Assembly: GCA_037128595.1 (NCBI GenBank)
Contig: JBAXWB010000016.1
Coordinates: forward strand, 19,819 to 83,818
Length of the DNA: 64,000 bases
Origin: a bacterium
GTDB lineage: Bacteria; Verrucomicrobiota; Kiritimatiellia; CAIKKV01; CAITUY01
Reading direction: 5' to 3'
Each line of letters opens with the position of its first letter. Within the stretch, counting starts at the first letter, position 1. A program made the position numbers and the translations under genes. This document shows, one piece after another, positions 12,146 through 52,980 of the stretch. The notes beneath the pieces were generated by a model. The model saw only the letters and a program-made list of their open reading frames with translations, was not told where the DNA came from and searched no databases.

Positions 12146-12170
12146 GGCGCCGACGGAGCGGCGCCCTCCA
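12146..12170 (-). repeat. REP-like palindrome, type B (loop variant)
   Basis: Reverse complement reads TGGAGGGCGCCGCTCCGTCGGCGCC; intergenic between convergent genes. Confidence 0.8.
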
Positions 12171-12226
12171 TTGAAATGCCGTGCGCCGTTCCGCGGATGG
12201 ACCATGAGCTGGGCCTGCTATTGAAT

Positions 12227-13924
12227 TTAGAAAAAGGCGGACGACAAGATGGCTTCAGCTTCATCCGCCCATGAGCGTGAGATCGCCCGGCCTTTCGGGA
12301 GCTGGATCATCAGCCGCCGGGAGGCGATTTTGTGGTTCAGGGCGACCGAAGCATAGCGGTCCGTCAGGTGGGTGGGGGCCAGGCGGATAACGGCAATCAG
12401 ATTATCCAGTAAATCCAGCGGTTCCTCGGATTGCGGGGCCAGGACAAACTGGAAAAGGTTGTCCGGAAGCGCCCGGATGGCCTTTTGGATAAAGTCCGAC
12501 AGGGAATCCCGTTGCGCGAATAGATTCGCCCCTTGGAAAATATAGGCCCGGCGGTTCCGGGTGCCGGTGAGCGGGCTTTTCCCCGGGACCGTCACGGGGA
12601 TTAGCTCGGGGAACAGGTCGAGTTTCCTACCCACAAATTGCGGGGTCGGCACGTCTGAGCGGAGTTTGGGGTGCTGCGCGATCAGGGCTTCAATGGTTTG
12701 AAACGCCGGGCGATCCATGGTGGAGGTCCGGGTCACGGCATACGGGGGCAGGGGCTGTGCCTCGATCGCCCACTCCTGCTGCCGATCGCGCAATTCGGTG
12801 CCGGGTAACAACAGGGTTTGCAGGCATTGAATATTGGCGCCGGGTAACTTCAAGGCCCACTTCACGGATTGCTGAACCTCCTCGACCTGCTGCAGGGGAA
12901 GCCCATACATGATGTCCACGGTGACCTTGATCCGGCGCCGGGTCAGGCGGGTGATCCCGGCATCCAGACGTGTCAGGGAGGTGGGGCGGCGGATCGCCTT
13001 GAGTACGGCGGCATCCCGGCTTTGGACCCCGACTTCAATATCCACAAAGCGGGCGGCCTCCATGAGGTCGGCCTCCTGGTCGGTCAGGCGTCCGGCATTG
13101 AGTTCGGCAAAGAAGGCGAGGGCCCCGGTGCGATTATAGGCCGCCAGTTGGGTCAGGATCTCCCGGAAGCGGGGATGGGCATTGAAGGTCGGATCCACGA
13201 AGCGGATTTCACGGGCGCCCATTTGTTGCAGGGCGTCAATGCGCGCCATGATGTCTGCGGGGCTGAGGAATGACATGGAGTGGCGCAGATGCGGGTAGCG
13301 GCAGTAGGTGCAGCGCATGGGACAGCCGCGTGAGGTTTCCAGATAGGCCATGCCTTTGGCATCAGGCCGGCAGGCCGCATAGCCGGGCGGGGGGATCTGT
13401 TGCGACAGTTCGACGGGGGGGGGCGCGGTTTTACCCCAGCGGTAGCCCTGGGGTGACTTGAGTGCGACCGAGGAGAAGCTGACCCGCTCGCGGGTTCTGA
13501 AGGAGCGGAGCAGGGCGGGGAAGACCACCTCGCCTTCGCCCACGGCAATGGCATCGGCAATGGGCTGGTCGAACAGGAAGGGATGGGAATAGGCCGCTTC
13601 GGGACCGCCCAGCAGAATGCGGGTATGGGGCCGCCGCTTCCTGATCTCCTGCATCACCCGCAGGGTCCGCTCGATGTTCCACAGATACAGCGTGCAGGCG
13701 ATGAGGTCGGGTTTCAGATGGAGAATCTGTTTCAGCAGGGCCGCATTGTCATGGGCACCGGCGGAGGCCGGCAGCTGGGCAAATTGATAATGGGCCGCTT
13801 CCCCCGCCTGTTCGGCCGCGTATTGAAGATAAGCGGCGGCCAACGGGACATTTTCCGTATCCCCATGAATATCGTTATCCAATTGGGGGAGCTGGAGAAA
13901 TAAGATTTTCCTGCGTAAGGCCAT
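12227..13924 (-). CDS. B12-binding domain radical SAM protein
   Basis: N-terminal cobalamin-binding-like region (PDLIACTLYLWN, LLGGPEA), ETSRGCPMRCTYC CxxxCxxC motif, FVDPTFN. Confidence 0.88.
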   Translation of the reverse strand: MALRRKILFLQLPQLDNDIHGDTENVPLAAAYLQYAAEQAGEAAHYQFAQLPASAGAHDNAALLKQILHLKPDLIACTLYLWNIERTLRVMQEIRKRRPHTRILLGGPEAAYSHPFLFDQPIADAIAVGEGEVVFPALLRSFRTRERVSFSSVALKSPQGYRWGKTAPPPVELSQQIPPPGYAACRPDAKGMAYLETSRGCPMRCTYCRYPHLRHSMSFLSPADIMARIDALQQMGAREIRFVDPTFNAHPRFREILTQLAAYNRTGALAFFAELNAGRLTDQEADLMEAARFVDIEVGVQSRDAAVLKAIRRPTSLTRLDAGITRLTRRRIKVTVDIMYGLPLQQVEEVQQSVKWALKLPGANIQCLQTLLLPGTELRDRQQEWAIEAQPLPPYAVTRTSTMDRPAFQTIEALIAQHPKLRSDVPTPQFVGRKLDLFPELIPVTVPGKSPLTGTRNRRAYIFQGANLFAQRDSLSDFIQKAIRALPDNLFQFVLAPQSEEPLDLLDNLIAVIRLAPTHLTDRYASVALNHKIASRRLMIQLPKGRAISRSWADEAEAILSSAFF

Positions 13925-13935
13925 GGGGGAGGGTT

Positions 13936-14883
13936 TTAGCATTGGCCCTTGGGAATGGCAAGGCGGGTGGAGCCGGGGGAGCAGTGGTAATGCCGGTGGA
14001 AGGCCTTGGAAAACGTAAAGGGATCCGGGTAGCCGAGCCGATAGGCAATCTCCTTGATCAATAAATCGCTGTGACGGAGCAAGTTGTTGGCGGCATCCAT
14101 GCGTAAGGCGTCCCGGTAGCGGCTGGGGGTGATTCCGTACCGCCGCTTGAAGGCGCGGCTGAGGTGCTCGGCGGAAATTCCGCTACGTTGAGCGACTTCG
14201 TCGAGGGAGAGCCTGCCGGCATAGTGGGTATCCAGAAATTCATGGGCGTTGATCTCGGGCGCCTGAGGCCGGGCAGGATGCGGCTGCTGTTGCTCGCTGA
14301 TGGCTTCTGCCATAAAGGCAAACATCTGGAGAACGCCGAAGTGGATCCGTTGGATGGACGCCGGTTCATGGCTCGAGATGGCTCCGCGAAGTTCCGCCAA
14401 TATAGGCGGGAGTTTGAGCATGGCGGTTTCAGGAATGGTGAACACGGGTGGAATCGATTCCAGTGGGCGGCCGGTATAATAGGTGAGTAACTCGGCCCAG
14501 GGCGGGGGGATCCGCATGGGGTCATAGGTGAGCGTCACCGCGTGGTAGACGGTCGTTCCGGGTTTGAGGGGCAGGAAATGGTGGGTGTCCTTGGGTTCGG
14601 AAAGCACGCAGGTTCCGCGGACGGAACGGATGTTCCGGCCATTGACCCGGAACTCATTTTTGCCCTCACAGAAAATGAGCAGATGGTAAACGCGGTGCTG
14701 GTGTTCCCGCGCGCGTGAGGGGCCCTGATGTTTTTCAAATAAAATGACGTTGCTTAAGTGGAACCGGCCAGCGGCGGGATGATCCATGCAGGCGGGTGCC
14801 GGATGACTTTCCGAGGTCGGGGTAAACCGGGCGTCCAGATACGATGAATCAAATAATGACATGTCAAAATCATATAACGACAC
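13936..14883 (-). CDS. AraC-family transcriptional regulator with cupin-like N-terminal domain
   Basis: C-terminal LSLDEVAQRSGISAEHLSRAFK ... IKEIAYRLGYPDPFTFSKAFHRHYHCSP; start uncertain. Confidence 0.9.
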   Translation of the reverse strand: MSLYDFDMSLFDSSYLDARFTPTSESHPAPACMDHPAAGRFHLSNVILFEKHQGPSRAREHQHRVYHLLIFCEGKNEFRVNGRNIRSVRGTCVLSEPKDTHHFLPLKPGTTVYHAVTLTYDPMRIPPPWAELLTYYTGRPLESIPPVFTIPETAMLKLPPILAELRGAISSHEPASIQRIHFGVLQMFAFMAEAISEQQQPHPARPQAPEINAHEFLDTHYAGRLSLDEVAQRSGISAEHLSRAFKRRYGITPSRYRDALRMDAANNLLRHSDLLIKEIAYRLGYPDPFTFSKAFHRHYHCSPGSTRLAIPKGQC

Positions 14884-14919
14884 AACAATCCATGCAATGA
14901 AACGTTTATTGACATGTTA
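14857..14919. promoter_or_regulatory. Two TGACATGT(C/T)A boxes near the divergent AraC/URO-D starts
   Basis: TGACATGTCA at 14857-14866 (palindrome) and TGACATGTTA at 14910-14919. Confidence 0.35.
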
Positions 14920-14956
14920 GCGTTCCGGTATTCGAAAAACATTCAGGAGAATACAC

Positions 14957-16165
14957 ATGAGCGCATACGAGCTGGCTTCTGCAGAACAAAAGAAACAGGT
15001 GGATGATTTATTAGCTGAAACAAAAGCCAATGGATGTTTGGCCCCTGTTGATCTTGAACGATTCTGGATGGATCAGGAGGTGGCCAACCGCAATCCCTTT
15101 GGCGCGGACATCCCCCAGGTGCCGTTAGGCGCGATCTGTAACTGGGAATGTGTGTTTGATGAATTGGGCGTGCCGCAGGACTGGTGGCGGTTCCTGTATG
15201 CGGATGAAGCCTGGGCGCTTGATTTGAAGCGGCGCTATAATGATCTGTCAGAAAAGATGGTCGGCAAGCGGTTGTTGGACGAGACCCCGGTTGATCCTGC
15301 CCGGCAGTGGCCGGAGGTCAAAGAACTTTGGGAAATCTTCGAGGGGCGGAATGTATGGGAAGGCGGGCCGACGGGGTCCTGGTGGTTGCATGAAGCCGCC
15401 CACACGCCGGAGGAACTTTCCGCCCTGCTGGATCGCGTGGAGAAACGGCTGGAAGGGTTGCGTGAATTCCTGCTTCCGGCGAACTGGGCTGCGGAGAAAC
15501 AGCGCTTGAATGGACTGGGGGTCAAGCTGCCGATCTATCGCTGGCAGCGGGGACCATGCACCTTCGCCTGTTCGATCTTCGGAATCGAAAACCTACTCTA
15601 CCTTTATTATGACGATCCCGCACTGGTACGTCGGTTCAGTGATCTGATTGGCCGTGCGATTCTGGGGCGGGCCCGGATTATTGATGAGGAAGCCGGGTAT
15701 GATGAGGTCACCGCACCGCATGGCTGGGGGTGGGCGGATGATAATTGCTGTATGTTCAATGCCGAGATGTATGGGGAATTTGCCATGCCGGTCCACCGGG
15801 CGGTGATGGGGCGCTATGCACCGAATCCCGGTGATAGTCGCTACCAGCACAGCGATTCGAAAATGGACCACCTGCTGCCCCAGCTTTCAGAACTGAACAT
15901 GACCGGGGTCAATTTCGGGCCCACGCTGACGGTAAGTGAGATCCGTGAGCACTGTCCAAATGTCGTGATTGACGGACAATTAGGGCCCTTTACGTTCAGC
16001 CGGAATGAGGAAGCCAATATGGTGGCTGAATTCCTGCGTGATTTCGCACAGGCCAAAGCCAAGCGGGGACTGAGATTTGGAACCGCAGGCTCGGTCAATA
16101 ATGGAAGCCGGTTGACCGGCATGCGACTCCTGATGGCGACCATTCAGCGGTATGGCCGGTACTGA
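14957..16165 (+). CDS. Uroporphyrinogen decarboxylase-like (URO-D/MtaA/CmuA fold) protein
   Basis: RGPCTFACSIFGIENLLYLYYDDP, ADDNCCMF, YQHSDSKM, IDGQLGP; SD AGGAG. Confidence 0.72.
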   Translation: MSAYELASAEQKKQVDDLLAETKANGCLAPVDLERFWMDQEVANRNPFGADIPQVPLGAICNWECVFDELGVPQDWWRFLYADEAWALDLKRRYNDLSEKMVGKRLLDETPVDPARQWPEVKELWEIFEGRNVWEGGPTGSWWLHEAAHTPEELSALLDRVEKRLEGLREFLLPANWAAEKQRLNGLGVKLPIYRWQRGPCTFACSIFGIENLLYLYYDDPALVRRFSDLIGRAILGRARIIDEEAGYDEVTAPHGWGWADDNCCMFNAEMYGEFAMPVHRAVMGRYAPNPGDSRYQHSDSKMDHLLPQLSELNMTGVNFGPTLTVSEIREHCPNVVIDGQLGPFTFSRNEEANMVAEFLRDFAQAKAKRGLRFGTAGSVNNGSRLTGMRLLMATIQRYGRY

Positions 16166-16178
16166 ACGGGGAAATGAG

Positions 16179-16200
16179 TGGGGCCCGCGGCCGGGCCCCA
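16179..16200. terminator. GC-rich hairpin between convergent genes (terminator or GTGG-tagged REP)
   Basis: Perfect 9-bp stem TGGGGCCCG/CGGGCCCCA, 4-nt loop, no clear U tract. Confidence 0.45.
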
Positions 16201-16211
16201 GGATATTCAGG

Positions 16212-16391
16212 CTAAATCTCCTGCCGGACGAGGAGGCCTGACATCTGGTGCCGGTATTGCCGCGGAGTCATCTTCATGATCCGGCGGAACTGGCGGTTGA
16301 AGTGTGACAGGGTCTCGTAGCCGCTGGCAAAAGCGATTTCGGCGATGGACTCAGCGGGTTCGCCTAAACGCTGGCAGACCTGGGCGATCCT
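16212..16391 (-). pseudogene. AraC-family regulator C-terminal remnant
   Basis: Translates RIAQVCQRLGEPAESIAEIAFASGYETLSHFNRQFRRIMKMTPRQYRHQ...* (second AraC HTH); an in-frame stop lies a few codons upstream with no start codon. Confidence 0.8.
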
Positions 16392-16462
16392 CGGAATCGC
16401 CGTGGTGTAGTGGTGCTAAAACCTGTTTTATTGTTTTAGCAATTGATTTGGCGAAATTCTGA

Positions 16463-16487
16463 TGGAGGGTTTTGGTTCGTCAAAACC
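16463..16487 (+). repeat. REP-like palindrome, type A (loop variant)
   Basis: TGGAGGGTTTTGGTTCGTCAAAACC. Confidence 0.75.
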
Positions 16488-16530
16488 ACCGGCTGCTACC
16501 CCCAGGAGAATGGGGTGAGGGCCGCTCAGA

Positions 16531-16591
16531 GTGGCAGAGCCGCTTTCCCCAGCTCTGCGATGAATCGGCCGACAGGGACGTCGGCCGCCAC
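16531..16591. repeat. Inverted pair of GTGG-tagged REP-like hairpins
   Basis: GTGG-CAGAGC-N11-GCTCTG (16531-16556) and, on the minus strand, GTGG-CGGCCGAC-GTCCCT-GTCGGCCG (16566-16591). Confidence 0.6.
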
Positions 16592-16770
16592 CCGGGGAGG
16601 GGAGAGGGCCGGGCGGCGCCCTCCTGTTAACGGAAGACTGCGGAGGCTTGGGCCCCATTACTGGGGATCAAATCTTGAAGTTGTGTAAATTGTGTCGGTT
16701 GTGATAGATAATGAGAACTGGTTATGTGCGATGGTGGAAGCATTCAGCAAACAGCCGAAGGGATAATACG

Positions 16771-18810
16771 AGCATGAAGAACATTGCAGTGAGCGACGTT
16801 CGGAATTTCGTCTTGATGGGCCATACGGCGAGCGGAAAAACAACACTTGCGGACGCCTTGTTATTCAAGATGGGGGCCAATGACCGGTTGGGTTCCGTGG
16901 ATCAGGGGTCCAGCCTGGGCGACTATACGGATGAGGAAAAGGCCCGCAAGACCACGATCTACTCCAAGTCCTTTTGCGGCACCTATAAAAGCTCCGATGG
17001 CCACAACATGGACATCGTGTTCTGTGACACTCCCGGCTATGCCGATTACTTCGGACAGGTCATCCAGGCCAGCCGGATGGCCGGCGCCGCCCTGATTACC
17101 GTCGATGCCCATGCCGGCATTCAGCTCGGTACGATGAAGGCCTGGAAACAGGCCTCCGCGCTCGATATCCCCCGCGCGATTGTGGTGACGGGGCTGGATC
17201 GGGAAAATTCCCCGTTTGAAAAAGTCATGGCCGATATCAAGGCCACCTGGGGCGACCGCTGTATCCCCGTGCTCATGCCCTTGCCGGATAACAGCGGGGT
17301 GGTGGATGTATTGGCGGCCACCGAGGTGCCCGCTTCGGTCGAGGTGGCCCTGAAGGAAGCCAAGGGCGCGTTGGTCGAAATGGCCGCCGAAACGGATGAT
17401 ACCCTGATCGAGAAATATCTGGCCGGTCAGCCCTTGTCCGCCCGCGAAATTGCCGATGGCCTGCGTCATGCGGTGTTTGATCGCAAGCTGGTTCCGGTAT
17501 TCGCCTGCATGGCGCTGAAGAATGTTGGGGTGGGTGAACTGCTGGATGGCATCGCCCGTTTCTTCCCGTCACCGGCTGATCGTCCCGTTAAGGATGCCGA
17601 GGGCAAGCCCATTGATACGGCGCCCACCGCGCCGTTTGTCGGCTACGTCTGGCGTACCGTGAATGATCCCTTCATCGGTCACATGAGCTTCGTCTATGTC
17701 TGCGGGGGAAAGCTCAAGCCCGACATGGATGTCGTGAATGTCACCAAGGACCAGAAGGAACGGATTGTTCAGTTCGTGTCGCTGAATGGCAAAAAGCAGA
17801 CCCCCATTACAGAAGCGGAGGCCGGTGACATTGTGGCGATCTCAAAATTAAAGGTTACCGCCCTGGGTGATGCCCTGTGTCAGGCCCCGGCGAAGGCCAC
17901 GTTTGCGCCGTTCACCTTCCCCAATCCGGTGATGTGGGTGGCCGTGACGGCCAAAACCCAGGGGGATGAGGACAAGATCGGGACCGCCCTTCACAAGTTG
18001 GCTGAAGATGATCCGACGATTCATGTGGAGCGGCATGCGGATACCCATGAGACCATTCTGGCGGGCATGGGTGATACCCATCTGGCGGTCGCCGTGGAGC
18101 GCATGAAGAAGCGCAACAATGTGGATGTGGTCCTGAGCACGCCCAAGGTGGCCTATAAAGAGACGGTAACCGGCCAAGGGGACGGGCACTACAAACATAA
18201 GAAGCAGTCCGGCGGCCGGGGCCAATATGGCGAGGTCTACCTGAAGGTCGCCCCGCTGCCCGAGGGGGACGAGCATCTCTTTGTGGATGCGCTGGTGGGG
18301 GGCGCGATCCCTCATAATTTTGTGCCGGCCGTGCATAAGGGCGTTCTGGATGGAATGGCAAAGGGCTCCCTGGCGGGGTGTCCGGTGGTGGGGGTCCAAT
18401 CCACCGTCTATGATGGGTCCTACCATGATGTCGATTCGTCCGAAGTAGCCTTCAAGATTGCCGCCGGCCGGGCGTTCCGTGAGGCGATGAGCAAAGCCCG
18501 GCCCGTGCTGCTGGAGCCGATCATGTCGGTCAAGATTACGATTCCCGATCACTTCATGGGCGATATCAACGGGGACATGAGTCACCGGCGGGGTCGCATC
18601 GTCGGCATGGAGGCGGGTGAGGGACTTCAGATCATCACTGCGGATATCCCGCAGGCGGAATTATTCAATTATTGTGCCGAGCTACGCAGTATGACGGGAG
18701 GGCGGGGTTCCTTTGAGATGGCCTTTGCCCGTTACGATGTGGTCCCGTCCACAGTGGCCCAGAAGATTATTGCGGCGGCGGCCAAAAACAAAGAAGAGGA
18801 GCAGGAGTAA
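16771..18810 (+). CDS. Elongation factor G-like paralog (EF-G2 type)
   Basis: GHTASGKTT, DTPGY, YKHKKQSGGRGQYG, HDVDSSEVAFKIA, LLEPIM, LRSMTGGRG; G2 and G4 motifs diverged. Confidence 0.9.
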   Translation, partial: SMKNIAVSDVRNFVLMGHTASGKTTLADALLFKMGANDRLGSVDQGSSLGDYTDEEKARKTTIYSKSFCGTYKSSDGHNMDIVFCDTPGYADYFGQVIQASRMAGAALITVDAHAGIQLGTMKAWKQASALDIPRAIVVTGLDRENSPFEKVMADIKATWGDRCIPVLMPLPDNSGVVDVLAATEVPASVEVALKEAKGALVEMAAETDDTLIEKYLAGQPLSAREIADGLRHAVFDRKLVPVFACMALKNVGVGELLDGIARFFPSPADRPVKDAEGKPIDTAPTAPFVGYVWRTVNDPFIGHMSFVYVCGGKLKPDMDVVNVTKDQKERIVQFVSLNGKKQTPITEAEAGDIVAISKLKVTALGDALCQAPAKATFAPFTFPNPVMWVAVTAKTQGDEDKIGTALHKLAEDDPTIHVERHADTHETILAGMGDTHLAVAVERMKKRNNVDVVLSTPKVAYKETVTGQGDGHYKHKKQSGGRGQYGEVYLKVAPLPEGDEHLFVDALVGGAIPHNFVPAVHKGVLDGMAKGSLAGCPVVGVQSTVYDGSYHDVDSSEVAFKIAAGRAFREAMSKARPVLLEPIMSVKITIPDHFMGDINGDMSHRRGRIVGMEAGEGLQIITADIPQAELFNYCAELRSMTGGRGSFEMAFARYDVVPSTVAQKIIAAAAKNKEEEQE

Positions 18811-18819
18811 TCTCCGCTG

Positions 18820-19728: not shown

Positions 19729-19765
19729 CCGGGTTCAAACCAGTATCAGGAAAGAGAGGAATGAG

Positions 19766-21018: not shown

Positions 21019-21044
21019 AACCTGATGATAAACGCGAGGGACGT

Positions 21045-21644: not shown

Positions 21645-21666
21645 GCCGTCCCGGAATTGATTTCAC

Positions 21667-21733
21667 TGGAGGGCGCCGCTCTGTCGGCGCCGGTATAAAA
21701 AAAATAGTGGTTTTGACAGAGCAAAACCCTCCA
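21667..21733. repeat. REP-like doublet (type B forward, type A reverse)
   Basis: TGGAGGGCGCCGCTCTGTCGGCGCC at 21667-21691; GGTTTTGACAGAGCAAAACCCTCCA at 21709-21733. Confidence 0.85.
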
Positions 21734-21747
21734 AAGGGAGAATCAGT

Positions 21748-22284: not shown

Positions 22285-22290
22285 ATGATC

Positions 22291-22321: not shown

Positions 22322-22322
22322 T

Positions 22323-23682: not shown

Positions 23683-23689
23683 ACGCAGA

Positions 23690-23747
23690 GGTTTTGACAG
23701 AGCAAAACCCTCCATTATTAAATGGAGGCCGCCGCTCTGTCGGCGCC
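23690..23747. repeat. REP-like doublet (type A reverse, type B forward), tags facing inward
   Basis: GGTTTTGACAGAGCAAAACCCTCCA 23690-23714; TGGAGGCCGCCGCTCTGTCGGCGCC 23723-23747. Confidence 0.85.
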
Positions 23748-23766
23748 GGTGCATATGGAGCCTGAC

Positions 23767-24228
23767 TTAGAATCCGTACGCGATTTTCAGCTGATCTTCC
23801 GTCGGCATTGACGGGTAATATTCACCCCGCGGACCGGCATATTGATTGCCCACCCGACGTAGGGTCACAGGGGTATAGGACCCGTTGGAGTTCTTCACGT
23901 TGACGATCGTGGTATTGGCCGCTTCGTTTGCGGCATTCACTTGGGCATTCATATGGCCCATTTGAGTATTCGATTTGTCGGTCTGGTGCCCCATGGCGCC
24001 TCCGAGAAGTCCGCCAATCGCCGCTCCGGCAACAGCTCCTTCGCCGTTTCCGAATGCGCCGTGGCTGTTATTACCGATGATACCGCCCGCAATGGCCCCT
24101 AAAGCGGCCCCAATGGCGGCCTGATTGAACGTGGACGGATTTTCCTGATATTGCGGGGTGGAGCACCCCATCATCATGAGTCCAGCCACTGCCACGCCTG
24201 CCGTTTTGAGAATCATTGTTTTTTTCAT
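23767..24228 (-). CDS. Glycine-zipper lipoprotein
   Basis: MKKTMILKTAGVAVAGLMMMGC lipobox-like; AAIGAALGAIAGGIIG...GAVAGAAIGGLLGGAMG; SD GGGAG. Confidence 0.8.
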   Translation of the reverse strand: MKKTMILKTAGVAVAGLMMMGCSTPQYQENPSTFNQAAIGAALGAIAGGIIGNNSHGAFGNGEGAVAGAAIGGLLGGAMGHQTDKSNTQMGHMNAQVNAANEAANTTIVNVKNSNGSYTPVTLRRVGNQYAGPRGEYYPSMPTEDQLKIAYGF

Positions 24229-32866: not shown

Positions 32867-32939
32867 CGAGTAGTTAGTAAAATACTATATATAAATCTAT
32901 GTCAGTGGATTTATATGGTTCGCAAAATCATCTTCCCTT

Positions 32940-33033
32940 CCAGCGGGACAAGCCCGCTGGAGAGGGTAACGCTCCCGATGGCGGCAAGCCTGCTAGGGTG
33001 GATCTTGCTCCCGATGGGCTTGTCCCATCGGGG
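32940..33033. repeat. Left hairpin cluster of the Y1 element
   Basis: CCAGCGGG-ACAAG-CCCGCTGG (32940-32960), degenerate CAAG unit (32971-33002), inverted unit CCCGATGGG-CTTGT-CCCATCGGG (33010-33032). Confidence 0.85.
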
Positions 33034-33039
33034 CTGAAA

Positions 33040-33855
33040 ATGGGCTTGGCTACACGACCGCCCCGCTATACCGCCCATAACCTCTCCAGCGCCTTCTCGC
33101 TGCGCTACGACTGGACGGGTTGGCCAAAGGAGGGAACCTCCCTGCCGCCTTCCGCAATTGATATCGCCCGCTCCCTAGCATCCCTGTGGGAGCAGGACGG
33201 ACTCCGGCTCATGGAACCACACGCCACCGCCGAAAAAATCCAACTTCTCTTCAGTGTCACCCCTGCGATCAGCCCAACCTTTTTCACGATGCGGGTGAAG
33301 GGTCGGCTCCAGCATGCCCTGCGAAAAGCGGGAACACCGGTGCAATTTAGCCGCAAGGTGTCCTTGCGTAGCCTCGGCGAGAATATCACCGCGCAGGTGG
33401 CGGGGTATCTCCATAGACAGGTCGGCAAGGAAGGTTTCGTTGACCCGCGGTTTGAGAGGATTATGAGCGAATTCACCGTAGCGTGTCCGGAGGTTGTCCT
33501 GGCGGAGCCAGCCGCCTCGAGCAGCGGGCGATATTGGTATAACCTGCATGTCGTGCTGGTCGTGGCTGATCGGTTGAGAATCACGAATCCGGTGAAGTTG
33601 GGGCTACTGCGTGATGCCGTTTTTGTCGTGGCAGAACGGACGGGTTGCCAGATTGCGGCGCTGGCGGTGATGCCAGATCATGTGCATGCGGCTGTGCGGG
33701 GGAATTACGAGATGACACCGGAGGAGATTGCGCTTGCCTTGCAGAATGGTCTGGCGCAGGCGCTTGGGTGCCGGGTGTGGCAGGACGGGTTTTATGTGGG
33801 CACGTTTAGCGAGTATGACCTGGACGTTATCCGCCGTATCGTTGGGAAATCATAA
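33040..33855 (+). CDS. Tandem double-domain Y1 (IS200-like HUH) transposase/nuclease
   Basis: 271 aa. Domain 1: SLRYDWTGWPK...EKIQLL...VKGRLQHALR...GYLHRQ; domain 2: RYWYNLHVVLV...MPDHVH...WQDGFYVGT. Codons 32899-33039 of the track ORF are hairpin-repeat DNA, so ATG 33040 is preferred. Confidence 0.82.
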   Translation: MGLATRPPRYTAHNLSSAFSLRYDWTGWPKEGTSLPPSAIDIARSLASLWEQDGLRLMEPHATAEKIQLLFSVTPAISPTFFTMRVKGRLQHALRKAGTPVQFSRKVSLRSLGENITAQVAGYLHRQVGKEGFVDPRFERIMSEFTVACPEVVLAEPAASSSGRYWYNLHVVLVVADRLRITNPVKLGLLRDAVFVVAERTGCQIAALAVMPDHVHAAVRGNYEMTPEEIALALQNGLAQALGCRVWQDGFYVGTFSEYDLDVIRRIVGKS

Positions 33856-34048
33856 TCTCCTGTCGGGCAAGCCGACAGGGGGATAATCATAATCTCCTGT
33901 CAGGTAAGCCGACAGGGGGATATGCTCCCGGGCGGGCAAGCCGAGAGGGGGATATGCTCCCGGCGGGCAAGCCGACAGGGGGATATGTTCCCGGCGGGCA
34001 AGCCGGCAACAGTGGATGTGCGCTCCCGACGGGCTTGTCCCGTCGGGG
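33849..34048. repeat. Right tandem hairpin array of the Y1 element (5 direct units plus 1 inverted unit)
   Basis: Units of 31-37 bp with core CTCC(T/C)G(T/G)CGG-GCAAG-CCGACAGGGGGA starting near 33857, 33894, 33925, 33957, 33988, then inverted CCCGACGGG-CTTGT-CCCGTCGGG (34025-34047). Confidence 0.92.
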
Positions 34049-34159
34049 CGGGAAAGTTTGTTTGCTTGCACTTGTCATGTAGCCCGCACTGTGCTGCATT
34101 ATGGGCATAAACCTCGGCATATAGGGGCGGCGTCACTTATGCATGAAAACCAACGTGTG

Positions 34160-39234: not shown

Positions 39235-39308
39235 GGTTTTGACAGAGCAAAACCCTCCATTCAGGAACGTGAAATTCTTTTAATGGAGGGCGCCGCTCTG
39301 TCGGCGCC
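39235..39308. repeat. REP-like doublet (type A reverse, type B forward)
   Basis: GGTTTTGACAGAGCAAAACCCTCCA 39235-39259; TGGAGGGCGCCGCTCTGTCGGCGCC 39284-39308. Confidence 0.85.
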
Positions 39309-43754: not shown

Positions 43755-43762
43755 GGGAACGG

Positions 43763-44326: not shown

Positions 44327-44341
44327 AATACAGCCTCCGTG

Positions 44342-45463: not shown

Positions 45464-45642
45464 GTCTGAATTCCGTGCTTTGTCAGGACTATACCATGCC
45501 CCTGCGGGATGGCAATAACGAGAAAACTTGACCGCGGAGGCGCGGAGATTTAGAGAGAGCCGGAAATGCAAATGTAGCGTCTACCCTGCCAAAAAACTCC
45601 CCATGGAACGGGAAATAGTATAAAGACAAGAACCCGATAAGG

Positions 45643-46413: not shown

Positions 46414-47000
46414 GCCGGTGGCTCCTTGATTTTCAACTCCACGCGCAGGCGGCTCATTTTCCGGTAAACCCGCAGACGTCGCAGGACGGGCCACCAGCCG
46501 TACAGATAGATGTCGATGGGTTTCCACATCGCGACCCAGCATCCCACCGCCAGGCCTTCCCTCAACCATTCCGCGGTGGTGGAGAAGGGGAATTCCCGCC
46601 CGAGGCCCTTGCTCAAGGTCAGGCATAAGGCCATGAATGCCACGCCGATGATCAGGCTGATCTGGCCGGTTTTCATAAGTTGCCGCAGTTCACGCCGGGT
46701 GGTATCCGCCTTGCTGTGGAAGAAATTCCGGACCGCAAGCTCGGTGAACCGGCGCGGGTCGGGCCCGCCCAGGACCGGCGGTTGCCCCAGATGTACGACC
46801 AGGGTGATGGGCATATTGACGGGGAATTCCAACGCCCAACCTTCGATGAACGCTTCGGCGTCGGCGTCCAGATCCTTGTCAATGAACGGCGATGGATCCA
46901 TTAGATTGAAAAGCTGACTGAGATCATGTAGGCGTAGCTGGACGATGGCCGTCTCGCCCACTTTTTTTCCGCTGATAAGTACTTGGCTCTTATCGCTCAT
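46377..47000 (-). CDS. Hypothetical membrane protein (two C-terminal TM segments)
   Basis: 207 aa ORF with SD; 3' end overlaps birA convergently. Confidence 0.7.
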   Translation of the reverse strand: MSDKSQVLISGKKVGETAIVQLRLHDLSQLFNLMDPSPFIDKDLDADAEAFIEGWALEFPVNMPITLVVHLGQPPVLGGPDPRRFTELAVRNFFHSKADTTRRELRQLMKTGQISLIIGVAFMALCLTLSKGLGREFPFSTTAEWLREGLAVGCWVAMWKPIDIYLYGWWPVLRRLRVYRKMSRLRVELKIKEPPAQSATTSPAQTV

Positions 47001-47115
47001 ACCTCATTTTTAGCCAGTTTCTTGTCGGATTTCAAGGCTCAACCTCCTTGAGTTCCTCAGAAATATTGCCTTTCGGGGCAAGTCGTTGCATAGTCACCCC
47101 CCATTAAGGAGCAGG

Positions 47116-48273
47116 ATGCGAATGAAGATCGGAATTATCGGGGCAGGACATGCAGGGGTGGAGGCGGCCAAGGCAGCGCGTGAGAGCGGCGCGGACGTTA
47201 CGCTCTTCTCCAATGAACGCGTGGTCCCTTATTACCGTCCACGACTGGTGGCCCTGGCGTTTGGTCAGGCTGATTTCCCGGCCATTCAAATCAAGCCGCT
47301 GGACTGGTATGCCCAGCAAAAAATCGAACTGAGGCTCGCGACAGAAATCTCCGGACTCGATCCCCTGAACTTCCGTGTGTCCACGGCGCAGGGCGTGGAA
47401 TCGTTTGACGGGCTCGTCATCGCCATTGGCAGTATCCCGGTATTACCTCCGTTTGTAAAAGACGGGGGCGGCTTTATCTGGCCTCTATGGAATGTGCCGC
47501 ATGCCGAGGCGATTCGCGGCCGTCTAGGACCGGGCAAGCGGCTGGTGGTGGTCGGGGGTGGGATTCTCGGGATCGAGGCGGCGTTGCACGGGGTGGAGGC
47601 GGGAATGTCCGTGACCATTGTCGAGTTGATGAACCGGTTGATGCCTGCCCAATTCGGCGCCCGCGCGTCATCAGCCCTGTTGCGCGGCCTGGAGGAACGC
47701 GGGATCCGCGTGTTACTGGGACACGGCATTGCCTCTGCCAAGCCGGGAGCCGCTTCGGTGACTCTGGGGTTGGATAACGGGGCGCCCCTGGAAGCGGAGG
47801 TGTGTCTGGTGTCCATCGGGGCCAGACCGGATAAAACCCTCGCGATCGCGGCCGGACTCGCCTGCGAGCGGGGCGTGTTAGTAGATGAGACCCTGCGGTG
47901 TCCGTTCCTGCATTGTTATGGGGCTGGCGATATGATTCAGTTTGAAGGCGTCACCCGCTGTTCCATGAAAGAGGCGTCGGCCCAGGGAAAGTTAGCGGCC
48001 CTCAACCTGATGGCGGCCTTACAGGGTCGGGCGGGACAACCGTATAAACCTGAAACCATTCCCCTGACATTCCGTTCCAAGAATTTTGAAATCTATGCCA
48101 TTGGCGAGGTGTCCTGCGCCGGTTCGGAAGAACAGATCCTGGATGGCTCCACCGAAACGCTGATCCGGGCATTGGTCGTGAAAGACGGGGTTCCCGTTGG
48201 CGTGCAGATGATCGGGACACGGGAAGGCTTCGATTCGTATGCCGCCGAAGTGAAGAAGGCGAAGAAGACGTAA
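47116..48273 (+). CDS. FAD/NAD(P)-dependent oxidoreductase (rubredoxin reductase/NirB N-terminal-like)
   Basis: IIGAGHAG, YYRPRL, VVGGGILGIE, YGAGD; SD AAGGAG. Confidence 0.85.
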   Translation: MRMKIGIIGAGHAGVEAAKAARESGADVTLFSNERVVPYYRPRLVALAFGQADFPAIQIKPLDWYAQQKIELRLATEISGLDPLNFRVSTAQGVESFDGLVIAIGSIPVLPPFVKDGGGFIWPLWNVPHAEAIRGRLGPGKRLVVVGGGILGIEAALHGVEAGMSVTIVELMNRLMPAQFGARASSALLRGLEERGIRVLLGHGIASAKPGAASVTLGLDNGAPLEAEVCLVSIGARPDKTLAIAAGLACERGVLVDETLRCPFLHCYGAGDMIQFEGVTRCSMKEASAQGKLAALNLMAALQGRAGQPYKPETIPLTFRSKNFEIYAIGEVSCAGSEEQILDGSTETLIRALVVKDGVPVGVQMIGTREGFDSYAAEVKKAKKT

Positions 48274-48289
48274 GACGTGAGATGTAAGA
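48266..48289. repeat. Three heptamer repeats AGA(C/T)GT(A/G)
   Basis: AGACGTA-AGACGTG-AGATGTA-AGA across the oxidoreductase stop codon. Confidence 0.5.
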
Positions 48290-48300
48290 GGCGGGAGGGG

Positions 48301-48477
48301 TTACGGGGAAGGTTTGGGCTTCCAGAGTTTGCATCCGACGTCGACGATGGCGCTGGGAACATCTTTGACATCGGTGCTTTTTCCGTGTTCCATGAACCAT
48401 TTGCAGCCGCAGGGAAAAACGTTGCCGCCCAATTGGCAATACTGGCACGACCAGCATGATTTTTTTTCTAATGACAT
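48301..48477 (-). CDS. Small cysteine-rich protein (58 aa, CxxCxxC)
   Basis: Manual translation MSLEKKSCWSCQYCQLGGNVFPCGCKWFMEHGKSTDVKDVPSAIVDVGCKLWKPKPSP*; fills the intergenic gap; no clear SD. Confidence 0.55.
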   Translation of the reverse strand: MSLEKKSCWSCQYCQLGGNVFPCGCKWFMEHGKSTDVKDVPSAIVDVGCKLWKPKPSP

Positions 48478-48510
48478 CGGGGCACGGTATCAAATATCGT
48501 GAAAAGCACA

Positions 48511-49290
48511 ATGAGAGTATGTGTACTGGGAAGCGGAAGTGGCGGAAATTGCACTTATGTGGCATCCGGATCAACGGCCATTTTAATTGATGCCGGATTG
48601 AGCGGGCGCGCCACCGGGTTGCGTCTGGCTGAATGTGGAACCTCCGTGGAGTCCATTCATGCCATCTGTGTGACTCATGAACATAGCGATCACACCTCAG
48701 GTCTGGCGGTGTTGCATCGTGGCGGAAAGGTCCAGCTATTCGCCAACCACGCCACGATTGAAGGGATCGAGGCCCGGGTCGGGGCTGGCAAAAAATTGCT
48801 TTGGAATGTTTTTTCAACAGGCGCCAATTTTAAAATTGGGGACCTCTCGATTGATCCCTTCTCGGTCCCTCACGATGCCTATGATCCGGTGGGCTTTATC
48901 GTTCGCTGTGACGAAACCCGCGTGGGGGTGGTCACCGACATGGGCATGGTCACCGGCTTGATTCGGGAGCGGCTGCGGGCGTGTAATGTGCTCGTGGTGG
49001 AGTCCAATCACGACGAGCAGATGCTGAAGGATGCGGATCGTCCCTGGCATCTCAAACAACGGATTAGCGGGCGGCAGGGTCATCTCTCCAACCAGCATGC
49101 GGCCGAATTGCTGACGGAAATCGCAGGGCCTCATCTTAAAGCCGTGTTTCTCGCCCACCTGAGTTCGGAATGTAATTCACCTGAACTCGCCTTGCAAACG
49201 GTTACGGCCGCATTGAAGGAAAAGGGGCATTCCCACGTTCGCGTGGTGGTGGCACCTTCTGATCGGGTGAGCGAGCTGTGGGAGGAATGA
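48511..49290 (+). CDS. Metallo-beta-lactamase-fold hydrolase (YycJ/WalJ-like)
   Basis: MRVCVLGSGSGGN, THEHSDH, VPHDA, ESNHD, GHLSN, LAHLS. Confidence 0.88.
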   Translation: MRVCVLGSGSGGNCTYVASGSTAILIDAGLSGRATGLRLAECGTSVESIHAICVTHEHSDHTSGLAVLHRGGKVQLFANHATIEGIEARVGAGKKLLWNVFSTGANFKIGDLSIDPFSVPHDAYDPVGFIVRCDETRVGVVTDMGMVTGLIRERLRACNVLVVESNHDEQMLKDADRPWHLKQRISGRQGHLSNQHAAELLTEIAGPHLKAVFLAHLSSECNSPELALQTVTAALKEKGHSHVRVVVAPSDRVSELWEE

Positions 49291-49519
49291 AATGGGTTTT
49301 ATCTTTCGCATGCGATAATTAATTAGGCGCGAAAATTATAGTGTTAAGAAAATAACAATATCTTCTTGCGTATTATGCCGTTCAGGCGTAAATATTCAGA
49401 CGTTTTTTAATTTCGTTCTTCAAGGTGTATTCCATACTCCCTTTATAGGGTGGACTATGCCGTGGAACAGGTGTCAAGGGTCCGGTAGAGGTAACATACT
49501 AGAAAGGTTCAGTAAGTTC

Positions 49520-52078
49520 ATGAATAGGTTGCGTTCACAGTGGTGGGTACGTTTGTGTGTGGCGTTGGCGGTCTTTGGATTCGGGGCAGGCGCGGCAATG
49601 GCCAGCGAAGCTGACCTGAATCTTCCTGATCTGGGAGCAGTTCACTTTTCCGCATTGGGCGGCATTTCCGGAACGAGCCTGATGTTGATCGGGATCGGCG
49701 TCTGTTTTCTCGGCTTGGGCTTCGGGTTGATCCAATACGTCAAAACAGAGAAACTGCCGGTACACAAGTCGATGAGCGACGTGTCGGCGATCATCTGGGA
49801 AACCTGCAAGAGCTATCTGGCCCAGCAGGGAAAATTCCTGGCGATCCTCTGGGCGCTGATTGGCGTCTGTATGATTTACTATTTCCTGGTTCTGCAGAAG
49901 ATGCAGTGGGGAAGTGTGATGTTGATTCTGGCGGCCTCGGTACTGGGTATTCTCGGTTCCTACGGGGTGGCCTGGTTCGGCATGCGCATCAATACGTTTG
50001 CCAACAGCCGGTCGGCCTTTGCCGCGTTGCGGGGCACCCCCTGGGACGCTCTGGCCATTCCGATGCGCTCGGGTATGAGCGTGGGAATGCTGTTGATCAC
50101 CGTGGAACTGTTCTTCATGATCTGCATCCTGGTGTTCCTTCCCTCCGAGTTGCGCGGTCCCTGCTTTATCGGGTTCGCCATCGGGGAATCCCTGGGGGCA
50201 TCGGCCCTCCGTATCTGCGGTGGTATTTTCACCAAGATTGCGGATATCGGTTCCGACCTGATGAAGATCGTGTTCAAGCTTCCTGAAGACGATCCCAAGA
50301 ATCCCGGTGTGATTGCCGACTGTACCGGTGACAATGCCGGCGACAGCGTTGGCCCGACGGCTGACGGGTTTGAAACCTACGGGGTGACCGGGGTTGCGCT
50401 GATCACGTTCCTGGCCTTGGTGCTCGGGGCCGGTACGCTCTGTGCCCAGATGATCGTCTGGATCTTCGTGATGCGTATTCTGATGATCATTTCCGCCCTG
50501 GCCGCTTATACCGCCAACGACATGCACTTCACCTCGAAGTTGAAGAATGCCAAGGAATTTGACCCGGAGCATCCCCTGACGGTGTTGGTGTGGTTGACCT
50601 CCATTGTCTGTATCATCGTCACCTACATCGCCAGCTATTTCCTGTTGGGCGACATCACGGTGCCCAAGACGATCGCGGGTGTGGTCACCCAGGTCGCCCA
50701 GCCGAACCTCTGGTGGGTGCTTTCCACGATCATTTCCTGCGGCACGATTGCCGGAGCCCTGATCCCCGAGTTCACCAAGGTGTTCACCAGCACGAACGCG
50801 ATCCATGTGAAGGAAGTGGTCACCGCCTCCAAGCAGGGGGGCGCCTCCCTGAACATCCTGTCAGGGTTTGTGGCGGGTAACTTCTCGGCGTTCTGGGAAG
50901 GTCTGACCATGCTGGTGCTGATGTTGGGTGCGGCCTTGTTGGCGGGTCACCCGGCAGTGGCCAGCTTGATGCCGGCCGGTCTGGAATTTGCGGCCCCCAT
51001 CTTCGCGTTCGGTCTGGTCGCCTTCGGGTTCCTGGGCATGGGCCCGGTCACCATCGCGGTCGACAGCTTCGGTCCGGTGTCGGACAATGCCCAGTCGGTG
51101 TACGAACTGAGCCGCATTGAGTCCATCCCCGGCATTGAGAAGGAAATCGAGAAGGAGTTCGGGTTCAAGCCTGACTTTGAAAACGCCAAGCTCAACCTGG
51201 AGCGGAACGATGGCGCGGGCAATACCTTCAAGGCGACTGCCAAGCCGGTGTTGATCGGTACCGCCGTTGTCGGGGCCACGACCATGATCTTCGGCATCAT
51301 CCTGATGCTCGGCAAGACCAAGGCGTATGAGTTGGCGAAGGCGGCAGCGGACAAGGCCGGCGTGGCCTTTGACCATACCCTCGCGCTGACGGCCGCCCAG
51401 ACCACGGACGGGGTCAATTCGGTGATCACCAGCCTGAGTCTGGTGCAGCCCGAGATCGTCCTCGGCCTCCTCATGGGTGGTGCGGTGATCTACTGGTTTA
51501 CCGGTGCGGCCACGCAGGCGGTGGTGACAGGGTCCTATCGCGCAGTGGTGTACATCAAGGAGAACATGAACCTGAACGCCGAGACGGCTTCGATCAAGGA
51601 CAGCAAAGAAGTGGTGAAGATCTGCACGATTTACGCGCAGAAGGGGATGTTCAACATCTTCGTCGCCATCTTCTGTTTCGCCTTGTCGCTGGCCTTCTTC
51701 AATCCGTTCTTCTTCATTGGCTACCTGATCTCCATCGCCTTCTTTGGTCTGTACCAGGCCATTTTCATGGCGAACGCCGGTGGCGCCTGGGATAACGCCA
51801 AGAAGATCGTGGAAGTCGATCTGCGGGCCAAGGGCACGGATCTGCACGCGGCCACCGTGGTAGGCGATACGGTCGGTGACCCCTTCAAAGACACCTCGTC
51901 GGTGGCGATGAACCCGATCATCAAGTTCACGACCCTGTTCGGTCTGCTGGCGACGGAAATTGCCGTGGCCATGACGAACTCGACCATGAAGTATGCCATC
52001 GGCGCCGTGATCTTCACGGTGGCGCTGGTCTTCGTGTACCGGTCGTTCTACTGCATGCGCATCCCCGAAGACAAATAA
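49520..52078 (+). CDS. hppA: Membrane-bound H+-translocating pyrophosphatase, K+-independent type
   Basis: GGIFTKIADIGSDL, DDPKNPGVIADCTGDNAGD, DSFGPVSDNAQ, GNTFKA (Lys at the K+-dependence position), GGAWDNAKK, GDTVGDPFKDT. Confidence 0.93.
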   Translation: MNRLRSQWWVRLCVALAVFGFGAGAAMASEADLNLPDLGAVHFSALGGISGTSLMLIGIGVCFLGLGFGLIQYVKTEKLPVHKSMSDVSAIIWETCKSYLAQQGKFLAILWALIGVCMIYYFLVLQKMQWGSVMLILAASVLGILGSYGVAWFGMRINTFANSRSAFAALRGTPWDALAIPMRSGMSVGMLLITVELFFMICILVFLPSELRGPCFIGFAIGESLGASALRICGGIFTKIADIGSDLMKIVFKLPEDDPKNPGVIADCTGDNAGDSVGPTADGFETYGVTGVALITFLALVLGAGTLCAQMIVWIFVMRILMIISALAAYTANDMHFTSKLKNAKEFDPEHPLTVLVWLTSIVCIIVTYIASYFLLGDITVPKTIAGVVTQVAQPNLWWVLSTIISCGTIAGALIPEFTKVFTSTNAIHVKEVVTASKQGGASLNILSGFVAGNFSAFWEGLTMLVLMLGAALLAGHPAVASLMPAGLEFAAPIFAFGLVAFGFLGMGPVTIAVDSFGPVSDNAQSVYELSRIESIPGIEKEIEKEFGFKPDFENAKLNLERNDGAGNTFKATAKPVLIGTAVVGATTMIFGIILMLGKTKAYELAKAAADKAGVAFDHTLALTAAQTTDGVNSVITSLSLVQPEIVLGLLMGGAVIYWFTGAATQAVVTGSYRAVVYIKENMNLNAETASIKDSKEVVKICTIYAQKGMFNIFVAIFCFALSLAFFNPFFFIGYLISIAFFGLYQAIFMANAGGAWDNAKKIVEVDLRAKGTDLHAATVVGDTVGDPFKDTSSVAMNPIIKFTTLFGLLATEIAVAMTNSTMKYAIGAVIFTVALVFVYRSFYCMRIPEDK

Positions 52079-52101
52079 TCTGAAGTTCAGATGAACGTCT
52101 C

Positions 52102-52144
52102 ACCCCCGCGCCGGCGACGGTAGCGGGGGTTTTTGTTTTTTTTG
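52102..52144 (+). terminator. Intrinsic terminator after hppA
   Basis: Stem ACCCCCGC/GCGGGGGT followed by a long T tract. Confidence 0.85.
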
Positions 52145-52169
52145 ACAAGGACGGCAGGGGTATGGTTCC

Positions 52170-52952
52170 ATGAGCATTATGAAGGTGACCTTTTTAGGAA
52201 CAGGAACGTCGGTGGGGATCCCCGTGATCGGGTGTGACTGCGCGGTATGCCGTTCGCCTGACTTGCGCAACCGGCGCCGGCGCTCGAGTGTGTACATCGA
52301 GGCGGCGGGCTTTCATGTTGTCATTGATACCTCCCTGGATTTTCGGGAGCAGGTGCTCGAGTATCGCGTGCCACGGATCGATGCCGTGTTGATTACCCAT
52401 TCCCATGCCGATCATATTTTCGGGTTGGATGATATCCGCAGGTTTAACACGCTTCAGGGGAGCAGCATTCCCGTGTATGCGTCAACCAGGACGATTGCCG
52501 ATCTCAAGCGGATTTTCTCCTATGTCGATCAGGCCGTTCCCGAGCCCGGTGTGTACCGGCCGCAGATTGTGTTTCAGGAGAAAAAGGGACGGTTTCAAGT
52601 GGGGCCCGTGACGGTGGATGCCTTGCCCGTGCTCCATGGCCGGACCGAGACCTATGGCTATCGACTGGAGTGGGAGGGGCGGACAGTCGGATATGTCCCT
52701 GACTGCAAGGAAATGCCCGCCGAGACGGTGGCGGCGTTCAAAGGCATCGATGTCATGATTCTGGACGGGTTGCGGCATGTCGACCATCCGACCCATCTGA
52801 CCGTGGCGTCGGCGCTCAGTTTGTTGGGCAAGATCGGCGCGAAACGCTCCTATCTCACTCACATTTGCCATGACCTGGATCATGAAGAAACGCAGGAAAC
52901 GCTACCGCCGGGCATCTTCCTGGCCTGTGACGGCATGACGCTGGCCTGGTAA
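52170..52952 (+). CDS. MBL-fold hydrolase (PhnP-like)
   Basis: FLGTGTSVGIPVIGCDCAVC, THSHADHIFGLDD, VLHG, HPTH, LTHICH. Confidence 0.88.
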   Translation: MSIMKVTFLGTGTSVGIPVIGCDCAVCRSPDLRNRRRRSSVYIEAAGFHVVIDTSLDFREQVLEYRVPRIDAVLITHSHADHIFGLDDIRRFNTLQGSSIPVYASTRTIADLKRIFSYVDQAVPEPGVYRPQIVFQEKKGRFQVGPVTVDALPVLHGRTETYGYRLEWEGRTVGYVPDCKEMPAETVAAFKGIDVMILDGLRHVDHPTHLTVASALSLLGKIGAKRSYLTHICHDLDHEETQETLPPGIFLACDGMTLAW

Positions 52953-52957
52953 ATCAC

Positions 52958-52980
52958 AAGGGTTTTGCTCTGTCAAAACC
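52958..52980 (+). repeat. REP-like palindrome, type A with degenerate tag
   Basis: AAGGGTTTTGCTCTGTCAAAACC. Confidence 0.75.

Follow-up and report, generated by a model that had tools for sequence, protein, structure and literature searches.

GGAG-tagged REP-like hairpins with compensated stems in a Kiritimatiellia genome and other phyla, and their association with one clade of RAYT genes

Introduction

The reference set for GTAG-tagged repetitive extragenic palindromic (REP) elements and their REP-associated tyrosine transposases (RAYTs) comprises the REP/BIME sequences of E. coli and the REPINs of Pseudomonas, and their classification is given by Di Nocera et al. 2013 (PMC3733652) and Quentin et al. 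2018 (PMC6006769). Published REP searches demanded a GTAG or GTGG tag, and no GGAG-tagged REPs are described in these two papers; a family with that tag would therefore be missed. Here we analyze such a family, present as nine hairpins in a 64,000-nt stretch of DNA from a Kiritimatiellia bacterium (hereafter the window; contig JBAXWB010000016.1, positions 19,819 to 83,818, assembly GCA_037128595.1) and as many copies in other genomes. Judging from their sequences and genomic context, these hairpins are probably REPs of a distinct GGAG-tagged subfamily, linked to one RAYT clade and copied or maintained via that RAYT.

The GGAG family agrees with the GTAG REPs in having a 4-nt tag at the 5' foot of the hairpin, a G+C-rich foot and dispersed intergenic copies, and in forming head-to-head and tail-to-tail dimers, often heterodimers, that sometimes lie in longer palindromes. 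It differs from them in the tag, which is GGAG and not GT[AG]G, and in a 6-nt loop that is conserved across phyla. In REPINs, reportedly introduced by Bertels and Rainey in 2011, two inverted REPs form the repeated unit; the GGAG family also has the inverted pair as a unit in some genomes, but its arms nearly always have unlike stems, which would give two local hairpins and a helix between the tags, and not a single long hairpin. The CGTC-tagged REPs (Di Nocera et al. 2013) are likewise tagged stem-loops found over several phyla, mostly as heterodimers, and like them the GGAG copies of the window are orphans with no transposase of theirs nearby; the two differ in their tag and stem rules, and the GGAG family has a dedicated RAYT clade. 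With the ends of IS200/IS605 elements and their miniature inverted-repeat transposable element (MITE) derivatives, the PATEs, the comparison lies in subterminal hairpins read by a Y1 HUH enzyme and a short guide beside the hairpin foot, whereas the dispersed GGAG copies are without IS-like left and right ends around tnpA, and the associated enzyme is of the RAYT type (NF047646), not TnpA_IS200.

Results

Nine hairpins in the window and a family in several phyla

The initial annotation of the window had described a dispersed hairpin family in two versions, A and B. We searched the window with type A and type B patterns, exact and with up to three mismatches, using the shuffled window as a control, and recovered all nine proposed copies (five of type A and four of type B), where zero would be expected from the shuffles. 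Type A is TGGAG-GGTTTTG-CTCTGT-CAAAACC and type B is TGGAG-GGCGCCG-CTCTGT-CGGCGCC; the four central base pairs exchanged between them are all compensated (TTTT/AAAA against CGCC/GGCG), as had been claimed. A covariance model (R1) built from 58 distinct copies outside the window and run over the entire window with filters off returned the same nine at 21-40 bits, and the next match scored 13.7 bits. Like REPs in size and location, these are 25-nt stem-loops that occur nine times in 64 kb between called genes, mostly 3-32 nt from a stop codon and with none overlapping a gene.

A scan of one genome per species with GGNNNNGACAGAGCNNNNCCCTCCA, which leaves the four central stem positions free, gave at least 120 loci, so the family is not confined to the window. 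Hundreds of loci contain copies. Most belong to Verrucomicrobiota, Planctomycetota, Lentisphaerota and Kiritimatiellota, and some of the host metagenome-assembled genomes (MAGs) are labelled Desulfobacterales, delta-proteobacteria, Terriglobia and others. Covariation is evident among the copies, since all four free positions are paired in 112 of the 134 matches listed, against about 2% expected by chance, with about 40 different stems. The consensus is TGGAG-GGNNNNG-CTCYGT-CNNNNCC, often followed by G. For the tag and loop we used 83 partner copies that had not been selected by the search pattern and thus form an unascertained set. Their loop is CTCCGT in 68 and CTCTGT in 11, the window using the minority form, and each position of the tag T-G-G-A-G is kept in 75 to 83 of the 83 copies. 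The second tag position is G in 81 copies, C in two and never T. A nearly invariant tag is thus present, but it is GGAG and not the GT[AG]G of canonical REPs, and for this reason we file the family as a variant and not as a canonical GTAG REP.

Among copies with a perfect tag and loop, 232 of 268 have Watson-Crick-perfect stems. The imperfect ones divide into 10 with G-T on one strand, 8 with G-T on the other and 18 with other mismatches. The absence of a wobble preference on either strand agrees with the prediction from recent DNA copying, whereas long-term selection on an RNA fold would predict otherwise.

A RAYT clade flanked by GGAG hairpins

The claim that the hairpins are recognized by a RAYT-like HUH enzyme draws support from RAYT loci of other genomes. 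In 80 RAYT loci fetched by alignment of RAYTs from the Planctomycetota-Verrucomicrobiota-Chlamydiota (PVC) group, six proteins carry the motif MPDHIHLFC (L239, L249, L260, L262, L270 and L273). Five of these have WQRE[FYC]WD[TR]QLR, and L239 has WQSDVWDTQLR. The flanks of the six loci contain 4-8 occurrences of TGGAGG/CCTCCA and 0-2 of GTAGG, while 73 of the 74 other loci have only 0-2 TGGAGG/CCTCCA, so that GGAG-tagged flanks are found in 6/6 clade members against 1/74 other RAYT loci.

The same association was found in a second set of 80 metagenomic loci retrieved by alignment of the six clade RAYTs. R1 gave 194 matches in 202 kb of clade loci and 10 in 386 kb of general RAYT loci, and 134 of 160 strictly defined copies in the metagenomic loci lie within 250 nt of the RAYT gene. 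Strict copies are present on both sides of the gene in 36 loci, on one side in 12 and on neither in 32, at a median distance of 21-28 nt. The flanking copies mostly form inverted doublets with mixed stems; at L348, for example, tag-out mixed doublets with stems CGAC and CGAT and loops CTCTGT and CTCCGT stand to either side of the RAYT. A RAYT gene bracketed by one REP family, the arrangement of a REPtron and of the GTAG RAYTs, is therefore seen at the six genomic loci, at the 36 metagenomic loci and at L348. The link between hairpin and RAYT is thus supported by genomic association; in the window itself there is no RAYT of this clade.

The clade proteins pass the NCBIfam model NF047646 (REP_Tyr_transpos; L249 with 102.7 bits and L273 with 101.4 bits, cutoff 80), contain the HIH and EYVRQNP motifs (HUH and Tyr), and align to E. 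coli TnpA_REP (4ER8) with an E-value of 8e-10. In this alignment W94-Q-P-R-F-W-E100-H-A-I-R104 of the E. coli protein, its GTAG-reading segment (PMC6006769), corresponds to W-Q-R-E-F-W-D-T-Q-L-R of the clade. The segment reads WQRE[FYC]WD[TRS]QLR in the GGAG clade, WQxG[FC]FD[HR]xLR (e.g. WQxGFFDHLLR) in GTAG-linked PVC RAYTs and WQPRFWEHAIR in E. coli. Compared at the sequence level, REP tag and RAYT segment 94-104 co-vary.

Classical RAYTs in the fetched loci (L027, L043 and L145) are flanked by GTAG REPs of the form TGTAGG, 6 bp, 6-nt loop, 6 bp and C, which differ from the GGAG family by one base of the tag. Hairpins built of a 4-nt tag, GG plus 5 bp, a 6-nt loop and 5 bp plus CC are tagged GGAG in 291 cases, all with CTCYGT-like loops, and the next most frequent tag in these loci is GTAG, with 13. 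We also detected a GTAG-tagged hairpin with a CTCCGT loop in a Gemmataceae MAG (L204:2615-2680; gtGTAG-GGGCCGCC-CTCCGT-GGCGGCCC). It belongs to a doublet located a short distance upstream of a Y1 gene, and long inverted repeats flank that gene in turn. The hairpin could represent a transitional form linking the GTAG and GGAG families.

Doublets and genomic organization

In 224 copies we counted 80 inverted neighbor pairs and 4 direct ones; 54 of the inverted pairs are tag-out and 26 tag-in, with spacers mostly of 6-30 nt. The family thus forms dimers in the manner of BIMEs and REPINs, and three such doublets are in the window. Two different stems are combined in 76 of the 80 inverted doublets, which makes the mixed-stem doublet a near-absolute rule of the family. 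Predicted single-stranded DNA folds of the window doublets consist of two local hairpins and a helix between the tags, the type A stem being weak (about -5 to -6 kcal/mol). The statement in the initial annotation that mixed A/B doublets cannot form a long perfect hairpin is correct, and it applies to the family as a whole. The window doublets are not REPINs, having unrelated spacers of 8, 17 and 24 nt, mixed stems and two local hairpins in their folds. A doublet with conserved spacer does recur as a unit in some other genomes, namely as a 52-nt doublet in MAG CAZISY and beside the RAYT gene at L348.

The orientation and the type of intergenic region were assessed with crude codon-usage gene calls. 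Clusters are located in co-directional, convergent and divergent intergenic regions in 49, 24 and 16 cases, with 271, 96 and 97 such regions in the background. Singletons are not biased in orientation, whether compared with transcription (11 same, 14 opposite) or with GC skew (15 against 22), and the distances to stops and starts in the sampled loci were also without bias. No protein family recurs beside the dispersed copies, whose neighbors are unrelated, and the genes between neighboring clusters are ordinary housekeeping genes only.

The individual copies of the window

The features said to be common to all nine copies, namely the tag, the 6-nt loop and the 7-bp stem, hold for most of them, with four exceptions pointed out below. 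The type B singleton at 12146..12170 (minus strand, 38.5 bits with R1) is in a convergent intergenic region and has the variant loop CTCCGT (TGGAG-GGCGCCG-CTCCGT-CGGCGCC). The type A singleton at 16463..16487 (plus strand, 21.6 bits), upstream of the elongation factor G (EF-G) gene, has the degenerate loop GTTCGT. Three A+B inverted doublets in both arrangements had been proposed, and all three are present. Between ruvA and the rubrerythrin gene lies the tag-out doublet, in which a 17-nt A/T-rich spacer separates a type B arm at 21667..21691 (plus) from a type A arm at 21709..21733 (minus). Two tag-in doublets lie between convergent genes. One has its type A arm at 23690..23714 (minus) and its type B arm, with one C-C stem mismatch, at 23723..23747 (plus), with an 8-nt spacer; the other has type A at 39235..39259 (minus) and type B at 39284..39308 (plus, 39.8 bits), with a 24-nt spacer. 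All these arms were found both by pattern and by R1. Finally, the type A hairpin at 52956..52980 (plus), 3 nt past a stop codon, has ACAAG in place of the TGGAG tag and scored 21.3 bits with R1, over the hairpin part only.

Rfam at gathering thresholds gave no match over the window, and an E-value scan of one doublet yielded chance-level matches only. The hairpins do not resemble intrinsic terminators: what comes after them is CCUCCA or G(C), and the position tables show no conserved T run. Nor are they MITEs in the window: genes abut the hairpins, leaving no room for terminal inverted repeats (TIRs). A metatranscriptome contig of the same study spans 23702-23879, taking in the B hairpin, the tags, some of the A loop and the 3' end of the minus-strand gene, and indicates that the 23690/23723 doublet is transcribed, at least in that direction. 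The RNA data are sparse metatranscriptome contigs, and the depth at 23702-23879 is too low to place an RNA end.

Abundance and comparison with a related strain

DNA contigs of the source lake metagenomes have a depth over the hairpins that is 18-70x that of their flanks, and the same metagenomes contain many further A-spacer-B junctions, whose spacers measure 1-33 nt. L121, a strain with about 94% identity to the window, carries copies at the same four sites. In the spacer between ruvA and the rubrerythrin gene, the window and L121 differ at 0 of 50 positions in the two hairpins and at about 12 of 53 in the remaining intergenic bases.

The site changes that we found in L121 are insertions of other DNA. 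At L121:4642-4712, the orthologue of 16463-16487, the type A loop contains a 47-nt insertion (TGGAGGGTTTTGCT[...]CTGTCAAAACC); some insertion sequences target REP loops. Additionally, a MITE-like repeat of about 200 bp occurs twice in L121 (11985-12190 and 12920-13125), at places corresponding to window positions 23707-23718 and about 24340, and is missing from the window at both. One of the two repeats separates the A arm of the 23690/23723 doublet from the B arm and deletes the tag of A. A stretch of 32 nt, GGCGCCGACGGAGCGGCGCCCTCCATTGAAAT, is identical in the window (12146-12177) and in L121 (4812-4843) and comprises the B hairpin (loop ACGGAG) plus CTCCATTGAAAT. Its position relative to the EF-G gene is different in the two strains, with three genes (12227-16165) intervening in the window, which points to a rearrangement or a separate insertion bounded by the element.

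Larger mobile carriers and phage arrays

In two Victivallales MAGs, a doublet of type A and an AAAC-stem hairpin is central in a 122-bp element with the TIR GAGGTAATTGCAAAA and 4-5-bp A/T-rich target duplications, and which is thus a MITE; it was found at about 10 loci besides L087:74-195, L130:676-797 and L140:2425-2546. A second conserved unit, of at least 190 nt, contains a tag-out doublet with an 80-nt spacer (L012, L135, L138, L145, L153 and L154). Doublets are also carried within a TIR element of about 190 nt in a Planctomycetaceae MAG and within a repeat of about 150 nt in Desulfobacterales MAGs. The repeated unit of MAG CAZISY is the bare 52-nt doublet, with unrelated flanks.

Nearly every copy on viral contigs is co-oriented with the genes. 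Two related phage contigs, L169 (IMGVR_UViG_3300020165_003286; hairpin sites at 837-1050, 4421-4624, 6698 and 10350) and L165/L166/L173 (IMGVR_UViG_3300022923_002484), have arrays of direct tandem GGAG hairpins with alternating stems and a period of 63 or 33 nt. Every hairpin of these arrays has the orientation of the genes, and some lie within open reading frames, in frame with them. Between the phages, the arrays differ in length by a 62-nt unit of two hairpins, indicating slippage.

The Y1_Tnp gene of the window

The only Y1 gene in the window is a Y1_Tnp open reading frame at 32899-33855 (plus strand, HUH motif DHVHAAV). The C-terminal half of its protein has the HUH in the Y1_Tnp domain and is without the Tyr, and the N-terminal half resembles a degenerate second Y1 domain without HUH in which the Tyr helix is kept (VAGYLHRQ). 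This sequence organization points to a pseudo-dimer formed by a single chain, with one active site composed from both halves. On either side of the gene stand hairpins of a different family, with RCAAG/CTTGY loops (ACAAG/GCAAG/CTTGT), a GTGG-like tag and variable stems; the flanks of the gene (32937-33040 and 33855-34055) contain a tandem array of 4-5 hairpin units, with a 34-nt direct repeat on both sides. We found 18 relatives of this gene in Verrucomicrobiota, Planctomycetota and Lentisphaerota. The flanks of all 17 full-length relatives have RCAAG/CTTGY-loop hairpins with differing stems, and around the 18 loci R1 detected no A/B-type copy out to a distance of 3 kb.

Discussion

The kind of system to which the hairpins are assigned here, REP/RAYT, is known; the GGAG tag, the loop common to several phyla, the dedicated RAYT clade with its altered segment and the mixed-stem rule are new with respect to PMC3733652, PMC6006769 and PMC2864571. 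Neither the hairpin sequences nor a combination of RAYT and GGAG was found in full texts, among which subscription journals are thinly covered, so that an earlier description is possible. The family is not among the GTAG and CGTC families of Di Nocera 2013 (PMC3733652), is neither the Rhodopirellula-1 nor the Solibacter-1 motif (Weinberg 2010), and no link could be made to the 'CnGA-foot' structures of class 3 TnpA_Y1 (Quentin 2018, PMC6006769).

By analogy with E. coli TnpA_REP and IS200/IS605, the RAYT would bind the folded single-stranded hairpin, reading the tag and the loop and not the stem, and would cut and rejoin single-stranded DNA at the replication fork, so that the elements are copied or maintained. 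With the tag and loop being read, the stems could accumulate compensated changes, and tag and loop would remain constant. Each genome has two or three stem types, and its doublets nearly always mix them; the unlike stems would keep two local hairpins with their loops out of one long palindrome. The nine copies of the window may then be dispersed descendants, mostly just past stop codons, whose cognate RAYT would be elsewhere in the genome or lost, and in some lineages the doublet also spreads as cargo of unrelated TIR-MITEs.

Several observations weigh against this REP/RAYT reading. The four sites are common to the window and to a strain diverged by about 6%, with hairpins better conserved than the surrounding intergenic DNA, and conservation in place fits selection or gene conversion as well as mobility. 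The spacers of the window doublets differ in length and sequence, so that a doublet with its spacer is no obvious replicative unit there, in contrast to REPINs. What is seen to move in Victivallales is a TIR-MITE that makes target-site duplications, and a RAYT is not required for this. The 32 of 80 clade loci with no strictly canonical copy nearby also count here, and variant hairpins or short contigs may account for some of them. Furthermore, no clade RAYT was seen in the window or in about 1.3 Mb sampled around dispersed copies, and RAYT activity in the organism of the window is therefore only inferred.

The hairpins could instead serve the host as RNA, acting in the UGGAGGG-hairpin orientation as a 3'-end stabilizer, a terminator or processing site, or a site for an RNA-binding protein, with inverted doublets serving either direction of transcription. 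The proximity of the window copies to stop codons, the presence of copies at three of four spaced convergent junctions, the 0/50 changes in hairpins against about 12/53 around them, the co-orientation of nearly all viral copies, direct arrays included, the metatranscriptome contig across the B hairpin and the complementarity of the GGAG tag to the CUCY of the loop (by G-C or G-U pairing) all agree with such a role. However, singletons are unbiased relative to transcription, copies also occur in divergent regions (16 clusters to 97 regions, against 24 to 96 for convergent ones), a U tract is absent, the type A stems are weak, no Rfam family matches, and the phage sites are few and partly non-independent. 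G-U pairs, moreover, have no excess over other mismatches and no asymmetry between strands, and this lack of wobble tolerance, together with the lack of strand bias in singletons, favors DNA-level copying over RNA-level selection. We consider an RNA function unlikely as the explanation of the family, though an RNA-level role could coexist with a REP origin. A related idea, to which we give a low but somewhat better chance, is that the hairpins are a module open to selection, whose function in the UGGAGGG-hairpin form would depend on orientation, e.g. a protein- or ribosome-binding RNA element, beyond any RAYT link. It would explain why unrelated TIR-MITEs in three phyla carry the same doublet, why the direct arrays of phages are all co-oriented with transcription, why chromosomal copies form inverted mixed-stem pairs, and why the hairpins are far better conserved in place than their surroundings.

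A passive spread of the doublets, as cargo inside unrelated TIR-MITEs that DDE transposases move, with the RAYT association being secondary, is suggested by the 122-bp Victivallales element and by the longer repeats of Planctomycetaceae and Desulfobacterales. We regard this as very improbable for the family, because the TIRs are wholly different between lineages while tag and loop are the same, naked doublets exist in CAZISY and in the window, and the tight two-sided flanking of one RAYT clade would be left unexplained. Recognition of the A/B hairpins by the Y1_Tnp protein encoded at 32899-33855 is hardly credible: it is an HUH/Y1 protein of the same window, and its family, like the hairpins, is distributed over the PVC group, but it has flanking hairpins of its own with another loop and a GTGG-like tag, as do the 17 full-length relatives, and A/B copies are missing around all 18 relatives.

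Other candidates were considered and dropped. Operators of a single dimeric transcription factor, a possibility that the initial annotation had itself raised, do not agree with variable, compensated stems and spacers of 0-140 nt. A CsrA site was dismissed given that the ACAGAG variant is without GGA, sigma-54 or extracytoplasmic function (ECF) promoters because of wrong spacing, and an H-type pseudoknot between tag and loop for want of a wobble or strand signal. The phage arrays are not CRISPR-like, since their spacers are 5-8 nt and they vary by slippage of a two-hairpin unit.

If the hairpins are REPs linked to the GGAG-flanked RAYT clade, as we consider probable, the catalogues of REPs and RAYTs, which rest almost wholly on the GTAG/GTGG tag, have had a large family hidden from them by a one-base switch to GGAG. 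The pairing of GGAG with WD[TR]QLR and of GTAG with FDHLLR would be a natural specificity swap, through which the rules of tag recognition by HUH/Y1 enzymes become testable. Both the mixed-stem rule and the carriage of the doublet by MITEs of unrelated kinds are relevant to the question of whether REPs are nothing but selfish DNA or have in part been domesticated. GGAG repeats also break assemblies, as seen in contigs of the source metagenomes that end at GGAG hairpins, and the family offers a simple annotation marker for intergenic repeats in Verrucomicrobiota, Planctomycetota, Lentisphaerota and Kiritimatiellota.

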